From an uncultured archaeon (GTDB lineage: Archaea > Asgardarchaeota > Jordiarchaeia > Jordiarchaeales > Jordiarchaeaceae), in assembly GCA_964510585.1 (NCBI GenBank), contig CAZECW010000062.1, positions 1-32,000 of the forward strand: 32,000 nt of DNA, given 5' to 3'. The number at the start of each line of letters is the position of its first letter. Positions within the stretch are counted from its first letter, which is position 1. Of this stretch, positions 2,818-7,896 are shown piece by piece. A program made the position numbers and the translations under genes. The notes below the pieces were generated by a model. It saw only the letters and a program-made list of their open reading frames with translations. It searched no databases and was not told the DNA's origin.

Positions 2818-4080
2818 TTATTTTGCTATCCATAGGTCGCGTGGGAAGTCTTTGGTTAGGATTTCGGGTCCGTGTTTTGTCACTAGTACAATGTCTTCGG
2901 GCATTGCTCCTACCAGCCGCATTTCTAGGTCGAAGGCTCCCACCTCGACGCAGAACACCATATTTTCCTTTACTATGGTGGGATTGTCGGGTATAATCCA
3001 TGGTGGTTCGTGATTTGATAAACCCATACCATGTCCTACGAAGTTTATTATGTGCATCTGCATGGGGTCCTTTTTCTTTAACGCTTCAACTGAGGCTTTG
3101 TGAGCGTCTCCCACTTTTGCCCCTGGTACCAGAGCATCTATGGCTGCCTGTTCACCTTCTATGGCAAGTTTGCTTAGTTCCACCTGTTTTTGTGGCGGGT
3201 CACCCACATAGAAGGTTCTTTGCCAATCCATCTGGTAGCCTTTATAGGTGGGTCCGCAGTCACTAATCCCCATGTCTCCCTCCTTTATGATGCGGTCTAC
3301 AGGTCCTGTTATCCACCTGAATACCCCTCCTTCCTCCTCAGCATTGCTTGTCCAACATAGCCAGGTTGAACAGTTTGGGGACTCAAGGAGGTCTTGTTCG
3401 GCGCAGGCTTTCCAGAAGGCTCTGTGTACATCCAGCTCGTTTACTCCGGGTTTGATGGTTTCAAAGGCCGCTCTAAGAACTTTTACTGACCTCTTGCATC
3501 CTTCACGGATGATTCCGATTTCGTATGGTGTTTTTTGGCTCCTCTGCTCCCAAATGACTGGGTCTGCAGCTACTATTTTTGCGTGTGGCAATCTTTTGTT
3601 TAGGAGGTCGTATTCTTCAAATGAAAGGTAGGTGTCTATGTCGGGTCCCTTTTCGATACCAATTGTTCCTCTATCCAGTTTCAGTTCTTTTAGGGTGTCT
3701 AGCAGTAATTGCCAAAACTCGCTTGGTACCCTTTGCCCAGTTAGAAAGGAAGCCAATAATTGTCCGCCCTCAGTTTCACTCCAGAAGCGGTTTTCCTCAA
3801 CATAGGTTGTTAGTAGATTCTGCCAGTAGAATGCTCCATGACAAACATTTATGGGATTGTGGTCTCTTGGTATAATCATGCAGGAGCGCCACACCCAGTT
3901 GTGCATCTGTGCCACATCAGTCCATCCGCCATAGTATCGCCAGTTTATGGGCGAGAATAGGATCATAGCATCCATATTGTGCTTGGCTAATAGTTCTCTG
4001 GCTGTTTGGATACGTTTCTTATATTCTGAGTAGGGCATTGTCTCCCATTTTTTCTTAGCTACCTCTCCCTTTTCAACCAT
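2818..4080 (-). CDS. Xaa-Pro peptidase family (M24B) with N-terminal creatinase domain
   Basis: Metal ligands present: DCGPTYKGYQMD (two Asp), GHGMGLSNHE, CVEVG, PEDIVLVT. Start placed at ATG 4080 behind GGTGAG; the ORF track extends to 4143. Confidence 0.9.
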   Translation of the reverse strand: MVEKGEVAKKKWETMPYSEYKKRIQTARELLAKHNMDAMILFSPINWRYYGGWTDVAQMHNWVWRSCMIIPRDHNPINVCHGAFYWQNLLTTYVEENRFWSETEGGQLLASFLTGQRVPSEFWQLLLDTLKELKLDRGTIGIEKGPDIDTYLSFEEYDLLNKRLPHAKIVAADPVIWEQRSQKTPYEIGIIREGCKRSVKVLRAAFETIKPGVNELDVHRAFWKACAEQDLLESPNCSTWLCWTSNAEEEGGVFRWITGPVDRIIKEGDMGISDCGPTYKGYQMDWQRTFYVGDPPQKQVELSKLAIEGEQAAIDALVPGAKVGDAHKASVEALKKKDPMQMHIINFVGHGMGLSNHEPPWIIPDNPTIVKENMVFCVEVGAFDLEMRLVGAMPEDIVLVTKHGPEILTKDFPRDLWIAK

Positions 4081-4479
4081 TTTAAACTCACCCATTTTTT
4101 GCCTATTCTCTGATAAGAAATGTCTAAAAAAGTCTAAAACCAATCGTTATTTCATACTTTTAATGGATATACAAGTTAAATTAACTTTTGCTAATTGTGG
4201 CTATTTAAATCCAAGCGCCCAATATTACAATCAGTGATTTATAAACAATGAAATAGCACTTGCTTTAAGAATTATCTAAAACCTTTATTTTTTTAAATAA
4301 ATCCAATTTTTAAGAAGGATGATAGAAAAATTTTTTACATTATTTTTATATAAACTTATACAAAAAAGTGATAAAATTCGTAGCTTAACGATAGAATAGT
4401 TGATTATCAGTAAAGTGAAAACATATCCGAGGGCTTTGTAAACGATCTACCAAACGAAAAATTTTTGGGTAAGGCAACA

Positions 4480-5871
4480 ATGTTAAGCAAAAAGTTGAGT
4501 TGGAAATTCAAAATAAGAAGTAGGAAACAATTATTGGATTTAACGCTATTAGCTTTGATTTTCATTTCCTCACTCATAATAATCCAGTTATTAACGATTC
4601 CTTGGGGAAATCCGTATGCTGGACAAGGACTATTTAAAAGCGGTCAGAGCATAGCTAACTACCCTAAAGATAGTATATACCTTTATCCGTTCAGTAATGA
4701 TAGTGATGTGGATAATAGTAAAAGTATCGGTTCCCACTCCTATTTTCCGAATTTAGCTATAGCAGGGGAATACGATACAATTAAAGAGAGCAACACCGCG
4801 AATGCAAATATACAAATACTAGTGCCAAACGGACCGGGAGACTATACGGAACTTTATGCTTATAGTTCAATCGGCTTAAAACATAATTGGGAATGCACCT
4901 ATTCTTCTGATGGTGATGCATCCTATGTTTATTATAATAATACTGATTGGAAAGGGGACCTATACAACATTACAGACCCTAATCCAACTGGAAGCGGAAT
5001 TATAAACTGGGTTAGAGTTGGCATAAGTGTTATAACTATTCGTTCATCCCCCAATCTAAAGGGAGATGCAGAAATTCGGGTTCTTGCTGGATCAACATTG
5101 TTTAATTATTCTGGCTACAATAACATTCCAACATCTTATACAAATTACTCAGTACTTCTTGAGGAAAGTCCAAGTACAGATGATTCTTGGACGTGGGATG
5201 AATTGGAAAACCTACAGGTAGGAGTTGCTCTTAGGCTGAGGAATACTCCTCAGAGTGGTGATATGGTAAGGTGTACTTTTGTTTGGGTAGAAGTAAATTA
5301 TACTATACCTAATTATGAGTTGGATTTAGAGCTTCAATGGAGTGGCGTTCCTGCGACCACATCTAATGGTGATTTATGCATAAAAACAGCAGTTTTTTCA
5401 GGTAATGAGAAACTTAGTGTAGAGTACTGGAATGGCGGTAATTGGATTAAAGCTATTGATAATTTGGTAGAGAATCAGTGGAATAACGTTTCATTGAATA
5501 TCAATGATTCAGTCTTAACTATCCGATTCAAAGGATTGAATGAAACTCAGGATACAATCCAAGACTATTGGGAAATTGATTTATGCCTCATATCTATAAA
5601 TTATAATCCACAAGCTATTTATCTAGAACAATTATTTTTACTGCTTTTCGGTAGCTTTTTGTTTGGGGGTGGAAGTCAGCCTAGTTTACCATTTACTGCT
5701 TTTATTGTGGGTTCTGCTGCTTTAGTTTCCATTTTAGGTCTCGTTGTAAGGTATTCTTACTTTTCGGGAGAGGCGGTTTCTTTTAGGAGAAAGCGAATAA
5801 GGCAGTTGGAGGAGGCTAGGAAGAGGGTTCAGAGAGCTTTGGAGGATGTTGGCGATGGAGGAACGTCTTAA
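4480..5871 (+). CDS. Membrane-anchored protein with large predicted extracellular, beta-rich glycosylated domain and basic C-terminal tail
   Basis: Hydrophobic N-terminal segment (LTLLALIFISSLIIIQLL), 9 N-x-S/T sequons, one or two C-terminal hydrophobic segments, tail RRKRIRQLEEARKR. ATG at 4480 (alternative TTG at 4465). Confidence 0.8.
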   Translation: MLSKKLSWKFKIRSRKQLLDLTLLALIFISSLIIIQLLTIPWGNPYAGQGLFKSGQSIANYPKDSIYLYPFSNDSDVDNSKSIGSHSYFPNLAIAGEYDTIKESNTANANIQILVPNGPGDYTELYAYSSIGLKHNWECTYSSDGDASYVYYNNTDWKGDLYNITDPNPTGSGIINWVRVGISVITIRSSPNLKGDAEIRVLAGSTLFNYSGYNNIPTSYTNYSVLLEESPSTDDSWTWDELENLQVGVALRLRNTPQSGDMVRCTFVWVEVNYTIPNYELDLELQWSGVPATTSNGDLCIKTAVFSGNEKLSVEYWNGGNWIKAIDNLVENQWNNVSLNINDSVLTIRFKGLNETQDTIQDYWEIDLCLISINYNPQAIYLEQLFLLLFGSFLFGGGSQPSLPFTAFIVGSAALVSILGLVVRYSYFSGEAVSFRRKRIRQLEEARKRVQRALEDVGDGGTS

Positions 5872-6907
5872 GATATTGGTGATGGGGCCTACTGGTGCTG
5901 GGAAAACGTCCATAATTAAGCAAGTGATGTATGGATTGGAGTCAAGGGAACTTGAACATATGGAGCCAACTATGCTGGTCAGGGTTCATCCAGATCATAA
6001 ACACGGGAATTATATTTGCAAATTTTTCGACACTGGGGGGCAAGAAAGAATGTTTGAGGAATATTACCGTCCCGAGAGGGAGGAATTTATTTTCAGCAAA
6101 GTGGATATTTTCATTTATGTCGTTGATTCGGGTGATGTTAATAGGATTCGTCTTGCGAGGAAGGAATTTTGGAGGTCTATTAGTAGGGTTACCAAGTATT
6201 CTCCTCAAGCTTTACCTGTGGTTTTTGCACATAAACAGGATTTGAGGGTTCACTTACCGCCGGATGAAGTAAGGAACGTTCTAATTGGACCAAGTGAAAT
6301 AATGTACCAAGAGTTTCTTCCTAGAGACCCTTGGGAAAGAAGACAGGTAGAGAAGATGGTGAAGAGAATCAATGTTTATGGCACTTCAATTATGGATCCT
6401 GTTAGTGTTACTGGTGGGCGTGTTGATTACTGGAAGAGGGCTGACGAAGCCGTTATTGAGGTTATAGAGGAGTATAAGAGAGTTATCAAAGAGGGTATCG
6501 TGCTGGGCGTAGAAGCAAGAAAATTGTACCCTGAAGAATTTTTGAATAGTCTTACATCTTTGCTTAGGGATTTAGACCGTATCTCAGGTTTTGTGGGAAG
6601 TGTGGTTTTGGATAAAACGAATAATTTGGTTATTGCGACAACTCTTAGAGAGAGTGAACTTAAGGATACAGTGTTGGGAAATATAGTAGCTCATGCTGCT
6701 TTAATTCTGGAGGAAAGCGAAGGAGTTTTTAAAAAGGCTGTTATTCTTAGGTTGGAAGGTTTATTAATTGTCCTTAAAAGTGTAAACAAAGAAGTAGCCT
6801 TTTTAACTGCATTTCCAGACAGTAAACTGATTGATGAGGAAGAATTACGTATATTGGTTGAAAAATTCGTGGAAAAAATTTCGGATCTTTTTAAAAATGT
6901 AAGTTAA
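5855..6907 (+). CDS. Rag/Gtr1-like small GTPase with C-terminal roadblock domain
   Basis: G1 GPTGAGKT, G2 Thr (EPTM), G3 DTGGQ, G4 HKQD, G5 TSIMD, plus Rag-like segments IFSKVDIFIYVVD and KYSP. The last ~125 aa follow the roadblock alpha-beta-beta-alpha-beta-beta-beta-alpha pattern. ATG 5855 lies 9 nt after GGAGG (alternative ATG 5846). Confidence 0.88.
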   Translation: MEERLKILVMGPTGAGKTSIIKQVMYGLESRELEHMEPTMLVRVHPDHKHGNYICKFFDTGGQERMFEEYYRPEREEFIFSKVDIFIYVVDSGDVNRIRLARKEFWRSISRVTKYSPQALPVVFAHKQDLRVHLPPDEVRNVLIGPSEIMYQEFLPRDPWERRQVEKMVKRINVYGTSIMDPVSVTGGRVDYWKRADEAVIEVIEEYKRVIKEGIVLGVEARKLYPEEFLNSLTSLLRDLDRISGFVGSVVLDKTNNLVIATTLRESELKDTVLGNIVAHAALILEESEGVFKKAVILRLEGLLIVLKSVNKEVAFLTAFPDSKLIDEEELRILVEKFVEKISDLFKNVS

Positions 6908-6921
6908 TTCGGGGGAAACGG

Positions 6922-7896
6922 ATGCCGAAGGGAGTTTTCATCACCTATTTTGACGCTGTTGAGGGTGTTGTGCTAAAACCAGAATACGTGTATATAAGAG
7001 ATGGGACACAGGTAACGGAGGGTTTGGCTCAACAGTTATACTTTGCACATTCTACTGGGGAGACCAGAGATTATCTTGAAATGAAGGTGGGAAACATTAA
7101 AGTTGCGAGCTACTACTCTGGAATGGTTCCCAAGTCTCGCAATCAGATATGTATAGCGCTTCTCCTTGAAGAGAAGGAGATGGGAGTAGCCTATAAGGCG
7201 TTTCTTAAAACTAAGGCCGCAGAAATAGTTAAACTCTTGGATAATGACCGTGAAATCAAAATCCAAGAAGTCTACAAAGAACTGGAGAAAAGGGAAAAAA
7301 TAGTGGACAGGACGCACCTCATGATAAGGTTATTAGCAGACGAGGAAACTTGGAAGAGCCTAGCCGCACTCAGAGAAGGGAAAACGGTGGACACATCAAT
7401 CTTGTCCCATCTAAAAAGGTTAGAACTTGTATCTCAAAAGGGTGATGGAGAGAAAAAGTTTGAAGTTATGAAAATAAGGGCCTTCAAAGCCCCCTCAGAC
7501 TCCATAATAGAAGCTTTAGAAAAGGGAAAAGTGCCTCCAAACATAAGGTCTGAGGTTGGCAAAGAAGTGATAAACACAATAGATGAACTCCGGACAAAAA
7601 TAAAACAGGAAATAGAAGAGAGACCAATAGAAATTCTTGAACCCCTAGTGAACTCAGTAAACTACCAAATAGTTAAAATTCTTGAAGAGGAAGGAATAAC
7701 CTCAATAAAAAACCTGGCAAAAAGAATAGGGGTTGAGGAGGAAACCATCCTGTACCACATAGAACACCTAAAAAACAGTAGGCTCGCAGACTACGCACAA
7801 GAATACGCCTACCCGCTACTAAAAGTAACAATAGAAACAAAACCCGAGGAAAAAACCTTCGCCAGAAGAATAAAAAATTTGCTCAAAAAACGCTAG
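6922..7896 (+). CDS. Longin/uDENN-like domain plus winged-helix domains (NPRL2-like architecture)
   Basis: N-terminal GVFITYFDAVEG...KVASYYSG...ICIALLLE longin pattern; C-terminal wHTH (YQIVKILEEEGITSIKNLAKRIGVEEETILYHIEHL); 14 nt downstream of the GTPase with a GGGGGA ribosome-binding motif. Confidence 0.7.
   Translation: MPKGVFITYFDAVEGVVLKPEYVYIRDGTQVTEGLAQQLYFAHSTGETRDYLEMKVGNIKVASYYSGMVPKSRNQICIALLLEEKEMGVAYKAFLKTKAAEIVKLLDNDREIKIQEVYKELEKREKIVDRTHLMIRLLADEETWKSLAALREGKTVDTSILSHLKRLELVSQKGDGEKKFEVMKIRAFKAPSDSIIEALEKGKVPPNIRSEVGKEVINTIDELRTKIKQEIEERPIEILEPLVNSVNYQIVKILEEEGITSIKNLAKRIGVEEETILYHIEHLKNSRLADYAQEYAYPLLKVTIETKPEEKTFARRIKNLLKKR

Follow-up and report, generated by a model that had tools for sequence, protein, structure and literature searches.

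The stretch of DNA analysed here (the window) comprises 32,000 nt at the start of contig CAZECW010000062.1 (C62) from the genome of an uncultured Asgard archaeon of the Jordarchaeia; the genome is 3.78 Mb long and 96% complete. At 4480-7896 the window holds three consecutive genes, which encode a surface membrane protein (gene 1), a Rag/Gtr-type GTPase (gene 2) and a protein with a longin domain and two winged helices (gene 3). An earlier reading of the bare sequence (the original prediction) had proposed them as a candidate signalling operon related to the Rag and GATOR proteins of eukaryotes. The features of the locus are collected in Table 1.

The three open reading frames (ORFs) lie in the same direction on the + strand, at 4465/4480-5871, 5846/5855-6907 and 6922-7896. 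Residue numbers of P0001, the gene 1 product, count from the TTG at 4465 and those of P0002, the gene 2 product, from the ATG at 5846; the gene starts themselves are set at the ATG codons at 4480 and 5855, because the orthologues (e.g. P0026 for gene 1) start there. The stop codon of gene 1 (5869-5871) falls within gene 2, giving an overlap of 17 nt, and the stop codon of gene 2 (6905-6907) is followed by a 14-nt gap up to the ATG of gene 3. The ORFs, the overlap, the gap and the purine-rich ribosome-binding motifs, which make up all the structural claims of the original prediction, are thus confirmed on the sequence. Both flanking genes are on the - strand, opposite to the trio. The three genes are probably transcribed as one operon; the DNA of the window is present in hot-spring metagenomes (DNA runs), and among the hits, all of them hot-spring DNA metagenomes, no RNA run holding the three-gene unit or genes 2-3 was listed. 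The AT-rich stretch upstream of gene 1 is presumably the promoter of the unit. If TTTATATA is its TATA box, gene 1 would have a 5′ leader of ~100 nt. This 336-nt intergenic stretch is common to gene 1 and the divergent peptidase gene and contains several TATA-like boxes.

Table 1. Features of the three-gene locus and its flanks, in window positions
Feature	Position	Strand	Description	Basis
Upstream flank	2818-4143	-	M24 peptidase gene, divergent	
Presumed promoter	4144..4479	+	AT-rich, 32% GC; TATA-like TTTATATA at 4345-4352	sequence and composition
Gene 1	4480..5871	+	surface membrane protein, 463 aa from ATG 4480	
N-terminal signal-anchor span	4543..4599	+	P0001 residues 27-45; basic stretch (+6) ahead of it	hydropathy 2.52, charge count
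Ectodomain	4600..5619	+	residues 46-385; module A ~75-280, module B ~281-378	
C-terminal anchor	5626..5748	+	short hydrophobic Gly-rich segment 388-403, SQPSLP, membrane span 410-428	
Basic helical tail	5749..5868	+	40 residues (429-468), net charge +4	
Ribosome-binding motif, gene 2	5841..5845	+	GGAGG, 9 nt ahead of the ATG, within the gene 1 3′ end	
Gene 2	5855..6907	+	RagA/Gtr1-like GTPase, 350 aa	
G domain	5861..6439	+	P0002 residues 6-198; G1 GPTGAGKT, G3 DTGGQE, G4 HKQD, G5 TSI	
Roadblock-type domain	6533..6895	+	residues 230-350; helix-strand-strand-helix-strand-strand-strand-helix	model
Ribosome-binding motif, gene 3	6911..6916	+	GGGGGA, 5 nt ahead of the ATG, in the 14-nt gap	
Gene 3	6922..7896	+	NPRL2/NPRL3-like protein, 324 aa	model and Foldseek
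Longin domain	6922..7296	+	residues 1-125 (model 1-124); invariant D11 and G15 (F-D-x3-G-V), invariant K71 in the strand 4-5 loop	
First winged helix	7309..7497	+	residues 130-192	model
Second winged helix	7627..7845	+	residues 236-308, after a long helix	model
Downstream flank	8008 onward	-	POR/IOR (2-oxoacid:ferredoxin oxidoreductase) genes, convergent	

Predicted structures of the three proteins

Gene 2. The best Pfam match is Gtr1_RagA (1.1e-20, 74.5 bits against a cut-off of 22), which exceeds Arf (3.1e-16, 59.8 bits) by a modest margin, and a PDB search with a profile of 18 homologues places yeast Gtr1 (6e-17) and human RagA (3e-14) ahead of the best Arl protein (2e-13). The KYSPxA...HKxDL stretch aligns with Gtr1. 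GPTGAGKT, T42, DTGGQE, HKQD and TSI are all kept across 18-19 homologues; the HKxD (G4) and TSI (G5) motifs are what we take to be the Rag rather than the Arf forms. Two Arf hallmarks are missing from gene 2, since ~5 residues precede strand 1, without an N-terminal amphipathic helix, and G4 reads HKQD, not NKxD. The AlphaFold2 model (predicted local distance difference test (pLDDT) score, 78; predicted template modelling (pTM) score, 0.78) consists of a G domain, a helical linker and a C-terminal roadblock-type domain. Pfam did not detect Robl_LC7 in the P0002 sequence and left the C-terminal domain without a family. When the model was compared with the PDB by Foldseek, ranks 1-40 were all full-length Rag/Gtr proteins or LokiRagO/LokiRagM, over ~350 aligned columns; an Arl/Arf protein first appeared at rank 41, with the G domain alone covered. 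Because Pfam, the PDB profile, the motifs, the model and Foldseek agree, gene 2 is, as modelled, a GTPase of Rag architecture, and the Rag-like identity proposed for it holds both for sequence (Pfam, PDB profile) and for the two-domain architecture (Foldseek).

Gene 3. Sequence searches yielded a single weak winged-helix match, at residues 247-286 (HTH_AsnC/HTH_24 in Pfam, PH1519 in the PDB); Pfam NPR2/NPR3 gave no match at E<=1, and the PDB searched by sequence gave nothing beyond the weak helix-turn-helix (HTH) match. The model, made with 26 family members (pLDDT 83.8, pTM 0.76), contains a longin domain, in which the elements run strand-strand-helix-strand-strand-strand-helix-helix, and two winged helices. 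The seven top-ranked Foldseek hits of this model align along their full length with chains from yeast SEA complex and human GATOR1 entries (E up to ~1e-3, 324-427 columns, probability 0.89-1.0), NPRL2-sized chains included, with the chain identities unchecked. Their TM-scores are low (0.24-0.30) because the domain orientation differs. For the longin domain by itself, VIA-align ranked the NPRL2 chain 8fw5_B first (Z 10.8, root-mean-square deviation 2.9 over 120 residues), with other longins within 1 Z unit. In the ESM Atlas the fold matched unnamed Asgard clusters only. NPRL2 and NPRL3 consist of a longin domain and tandem winged helices (Levine 2013, PMC3747258), and the gene 3 protein, in its predicted structure, has this architecture. 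The model bears out the longin-winged-helix assignment made from the sequence, and NPRL2/NPRL3 of GATOR1/SEACIT are the best full-length structural matches.

Gene 1. No family was found in a Pfam/NCBIfam search, and orthologues are confined to Jordarchaeia/Freyarchaeota. The segment 388-403 is a weaker and shorter hydrophobic stretch than the spans 27-45 and 410-428, and all nine N-x-S/T sequons (9/9) fall between these two strong spans, within the ectodomain. The original prediction had made a cytoplasmic tail depend on one of the two C-terminal hydrophobic segments crossing the membrane. By the positive-inside rule the most likely topology has the N-terminus in, the ectodomain out and the tail in; a cytoplasmic tail is favoured because both termini are basic (+6 and +4), the sequons lie between the strong spans and segment 388-403 is too short to span.

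The ectodomain modules match 1745 archaeal library proteins at E<=0.001 in an exhaustive search. Module B is repeated in tandem in archaeal proteins of up to 3849 aa, some of the matching proteins carry Pilin_N, F5/8 type C or Laminin_G_3, and two of them come from metagenome-assembled genomes (MAGs) of Woesearchaeota and Bathyarchaeia; a feature-based atlas search with the ectodomain returned only unnamed phage/bacterial clusters, with scores <=0.90. A sensor role for the ectodomain is speculation, since many surface proteins of archaea are built from the same modules. Only the Jordarchaeial orthologues have the C-terminal anchor and tail, and among them the tail (59-85% identity) is no less conserved than the ectodomain.

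Gene order in Asgard archaea

All Jordarchaeia/Freyarchaeota relatives examined have the three genes in the same order, also where the flanks differ. The order holds in four further genomes of the genus (G117-G120), in Jordarchaeaceae records with other flanks and in Freyarchaeum deiterrae, where genes 1 and 3 are 52-63% identical and the flanks have changed. The linkage of the three genes is therefore beyond chance, since the order is retained both in the four congeneric genomes and in more distant records with changed flanks. Synteny of the membrane gene with the GTPase gene, on which the original prediction had staked itself beforehand, was found in all relatives.

A distant family, f20, has the same order; its records carry the labels Lokiarchaeota or Hodarchaeota MAG. 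At its five loci in four genomes a surface protein gene is followed by a GTPase gene and then a longin protein gene, with junctions that overlap or nearly touch. The position of gene 1 is taken by a surface protein of 1212-1362 aa with Laminin_G_3 and Big_7, overlapping the next gene by 4 nt; the GTPase (~400 aa) matches Gtr1_RagA at 3e-41 and also Robl_LC7, and the NPRL2-like longin protein has ~290 aa. The order surface protein, Rag-like GTPase, NPRL2-like protein thus recurs in two distant lineages, with surface proteins that are non-homologous. This recurrence makes the trio a candidate forerunner, open to testing, of the Rag/GATOR nutrient switch.

Full-length relatives of gene 3 are present in many Asgard families. 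Of 20 other Asgard loci retrieved, 9 have a small GTPase gene directly adjoining the relative and three more have one <=2 genes away. Large single-pass surface proteins also flank gene 3 relatives, with tails made of a Gly-rich span and an IPF-type juxtamembrane motif. A search of 151 Asgard genomes detected this kind of anchor in 91, each with several large surface proteins that carry it, and a full-length gene 3 relative directly follows such a surface protein gene on the same strand at 11 of the 30 best loci, in five families. The gene 1 anchor and the IPF-type anchors have the same general plan of a Gly run, a membrane span and a basic helix. Between the gene 1 tail and the IPF-type tail, hhalign aligned the 13 residues that also match by eye (probability 1%, E 0.056), and the hidden Markov model (HMM) of the tail misses P0001. 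Two proteins of the genome that contains the window (G000) with a Gly-rich span and IPF-type tail, at C79:23420-27304 (-) and C174:1784-2797 (-), have no longin or GTPase neighbour detectable by HMM.

Comparison with known Rag and longin systems

In eukaryotes, RagA/B-Gtr1 together with GATOR1/SEACIT (NPRL2-NPRL3-DEPDC5; Npr2-Npr3-Iml1) constitutes a GTPase and its GTPase-activating protein (GAP) at a membrane. The trio is like this system in that its GTPase combines a Rag-type G domain with a roadblock domain and the partner protein combines a longin domain with tandem winged helices. Unlike it, the trio is operon-encoded beside a surface protein and includes neither DEPDC5 nor a second NPRL subunit; it has one GTPase gene, unlike the obligate RagA-RagC pair, and the arginine finger and GP motif are degenerate in gene 3 (K71/R73 and G-V). 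The likeness to SLC38A9 and Ragulator (LAMTOR1-5), which tether Rag GTPases to membranes in eukaryotes, is one of concept only, a membrane-bound partner docking the Rag module through its cytoplasmic part. There is no homology, and gene 1 would encode a two-span surface glycoprotein, which is neither a transporter nor a lipidated scaffold. No roadblock-only genes occur in the three-gene unit. No TOR kinase is known in Asgard archaea (10.1101/2020.10.19.343400).

RagA-like GTPases, roadblock fusions and NPRL2-like longins are established Asgard classes (10.1101/2020.10.19.343400; PMC10933270; PMC9834061; 10.1101/2024.02.28.582541), and the original prediction was right to treat the Rag-like and longin classes as already known, RagA-like GTPases and NPRL2-like longins having been reported in the first two of these papers. 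Eukaryotic Rags were placed among the Asgard RagGtr proteins by Vargova et al. (10.1101/2024.02.28.582541). The two-domain architecture of gene 2 is that of the Asgard proteins LokiRagO (PDB 8yl2), LokiRagM (9m28/8zla) and the 'GTPase-RB' proteins of Tran et al. 2024 (PMC10933270), with full-length Foldseek matches of 8e-13 to 1e-10. The Lokiarchaeota structures in the PDB (8yl2, 9m28, 8zla, 8yqg) represent a homotetrameric LokiRagO, a monomeric LokiRagM and a Roadblock-Longin protein; no paper on 8yl2, 9m28 or 8yqg was found, and a description of the Loki Rag/Roadblock-Longin pairs may be in press.

According to Tran et al. 2024 (PMC10933270), small GTPase genes of strain MK-D1 generally lie outside operons with roadblock/longin genes, so the position of a gene did not point to its partner. 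The GTPase of the trio, unlike these, has an operon-encoded partner. 'NPRL2-like' Asgard longin proteins were described by Liu et al. (bioRxiv 10.1101/2020.10.19.343400) and GP-motif longins of the FLCN/SMCR8 type in Traffic 2025 (PMC12290439); no partner GTPase or membrane protein is named in either paper, and the latter poses the question of partners. Gene 3 is like these proteins in its NPRL2-type longin domain and its NPRL2-like C-terminal part, and its D-x3-G spacing matches that of C9orf72; unlike them, it has neither the Pro nor a conserved Arg. Compared with other Asgard clusters of surface protein and longin genes, the trio has a GTPase of true Rag architecture, placed between the other two genes.

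A literature search, which did not extend to subscription papers, found no paper linking Rag-like GTPases, NPRL2-like proteins and surface proteins in an operon. The pairing of Asgard GTPases with longin and roadblock proteins is an acknowledged open problem, given the many Rag-, Arf- and Rab-like GTPases. Here the operon names a concrete candidate pair, the RagA-like GTPase and the NPRL2-like protein, with a membrane protein as the third member. Proteins of 324-463 residues from a hot-spring organism should be suited to expression and biochemistry.

Proposed function and alternatives

On balance we favour the reading that the trio is a single operon encoding a Rag-type GTPase switch associated with the membrane. 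Roadblock domains are the usual dimerising and docking platform of Rag GTPases, and longin domains generally serve as platforms that engage GTPases. In the proposed mechanism, the gene 1 product would be a glycosylated surface protein with a two-span anchor and a basic helical tail directed toward the cytoplasm. The roadblock domain of gene 2 would serve in dimerising and docking, and the longin domain of gene 3 would bind the gene 2 GTPase and set or read its nucleotide state, with the winged helices serving to bind proteins, as they do in GATOR1. The GTPase and its NPRL2-like partner would be brought to the membrane by the gene 1 tail, so that the surface protein and the GTPase would be coupled in their states. 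All binding steps and the direction of signalling are what we infer for the trio. Prediction of a complex of the GTPase, the gene 3 protein and the 40-residue tail as partner scored 0.68, and a control with the GTPase replaced scored 0.75, so the prediction is uninformative on binding.

Several findings weigh against a switch of this kind. GAP-type longins are marked by an arginine finger and by a GP motif ahead of strand 2, the motif in C9orf72 being W33-D34...G38-P39 (Traffic 2025, PMC12290439). All members of the gene 3 family have D11 and G15, at the spacing seen in C9orf72, but the residue after the invariant G is V, T or A (G15-V16 in P0003 and in 15/15 orthologues). The 15 orthologues have R, S or H at the position of Arg73, which had been likened to NPRL2 Arg78, and K71 is invariant; the model is poor in the loop around residues 70-72. 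Because Arg73 varies and GP reads G-V, a classical arginine-finger GAP is not supported by the sequence, and the suggestion that the longin protein switches the GTPase off becomes doubtful; with its catalytic motifs degenerate, the longin may be a weak or atypical GAP or a non-catalytic platform in this lineage. The f20 relatives, among them the one of the pair NHJ19366/NHJ19367, retain GP and an Arg within the corresponding loop. Furthermore, the operon contains no DEPDC5-like or second NPRL-like subunit, and a paralogue of P0002 (35-38% identical) stands alone in relatives of the same genus. Outside this lineage and f20, most of the partner GTPases are not Rag-like, since they match Arf best and have an extra N-terminal domain. 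Finally, gene 1 has no homology detectable by hhalign and HMM searches with the surface proteins of other lineages, in ectodomain or tail; the wider pattern is therefore one of a protein type rather than of one conserved family.

The stronger version, in which the trio is a surviving prokaryotic Rag-GATOR axis at the cell membrane and a receptor tail signals to the NPRL2-like protein and the Rag-like GTPase, we put forward tentatively, as something that is probably not the case. If true, it would mean receptor-coupled small-GTPase signalling in an archaeon, and that the eukaryotic lysosomal arrangement of membrane-protein tail, Rag and longin GAP descends from plasma-membrane modules. The recurrence in f20, with GP and Arg kept, provides a direct test of whether the RagA-NPRL2 pair is older than eukaryotes and whether it first acted at the cell surface.

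An unlikely alternative is that the GTPase and the longin protein target, sort or position the co-encoded surface protein, whose tail would be a cargo tag. The models for such cargo handling are the longin-type SRX with the SR-beta GTPase, and the sigma/mu adaptins, which have a longin fold and recognise the tails of cargo. The surface protein that accompanies the cytoplasmic genes changes fast and differs from lineage to lineage, a similar C-terminal anchor is carried by several large surface proteins per genome across the 91 of 151 Asgard genomes, P0002 also gives a weak SRPRB match, and gene 3 matches, among other folds, the longins of SRX, adaptin sigma/mu and COPI zeta. However, Rag/Gtr and NPRL2/3 clearly outrank SR-beta/SRX for both proteins, 19 of the 30 best tail-motif loci lack such a neighbour, and the unit contains no coat or translocon genes. 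Gene 3 could also be a GTPase-gated DNA-binding regulator, possibly held at the membrane by the tail, in a relay from membrane to transcription. We regard this as quite improbable. It would fit the presence of two winged-helix domains, the weak AsnC/ArsR/Csa3-type HTH matches and a weak match to the tandem winged-helix archaeal factor PF0095, the net charge of +4 of the first winged helix and the isoelectric point of 8.3 of the whole protein, and DNA binding by the NPRL2 winged helices was left open in Levine 2013 (PMC3747258). Every HTH family match, however, is under the curated cut-offs, and the second winged helix has a net charge of -4 and an acidic candidate recognition helix. The equivalent domains of GATOR1 make protein contacts.

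Gene 1 could in principle be a mere neighbour by descent of a real unit made of the GTPase and the longin protein: its orthologues are found in one lineage only, and a shared order within one genus could reflect relatedness. The start of gene 2 and its GGAGG nevertheless sit inside gene 1, the order survives a change of flanks and a non-homologous surface protein occupies the same position, with its 4-nt overlap, in f20. The comparative data across lineages argue strongly against gene 1 being a bystander, and we consider it very improbable.

Some further loci contain related genes in other arrangements. In the Arf-like partner GTPases with the extra N-terminal domain, a permutation relating that domain to the roadblock domain of P0002 was considered and rejected as an artefact of a poor alignment; neither a clean HMM nor hhalign found anything. 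A 303-aa GTPase of genome G000 at C81:258-1169 (+) has an extra N-terminal domain and belongs to the kind that the sister species (L040) pairs with a paralogue of gene 3; it lies 258 nt from the contig end, and a paralogous longin/winged-helix gene beside it may have been lost in the assembly gap. Contig C117 of G000 carries, all on the + strand, a roadblock-like ORF (1615-2205), a gene for a 176-aa small GTPase (2237-2767) and one for a 511-aa protein (4568-6103), residues 46-171 of which match the gene 3 longin profile at 1.4e-24. Ahead of the NPRL2-like gene, families f26/f27 have a gene for a tail-anchored protein of 220-250 aa (L029:5845-6507 (-), L030:5826-6500 (-), L042:3790-4545 (+)) with a JAMM/MPN-type H-T/S-H-P-x-M-G-A motif, which suggests a membrane-bound isopeptidase as partner in place of the surface protein. 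In family f6, a 990-aa surface protein at L105:1155-4127 (-) has a cytoplasmic tail of ~240 residues that looks roadblock/longin-like by eye, and its gene is two genes from that of a 308-aa Rag-like GTPase (A2 profile, 5e-35).

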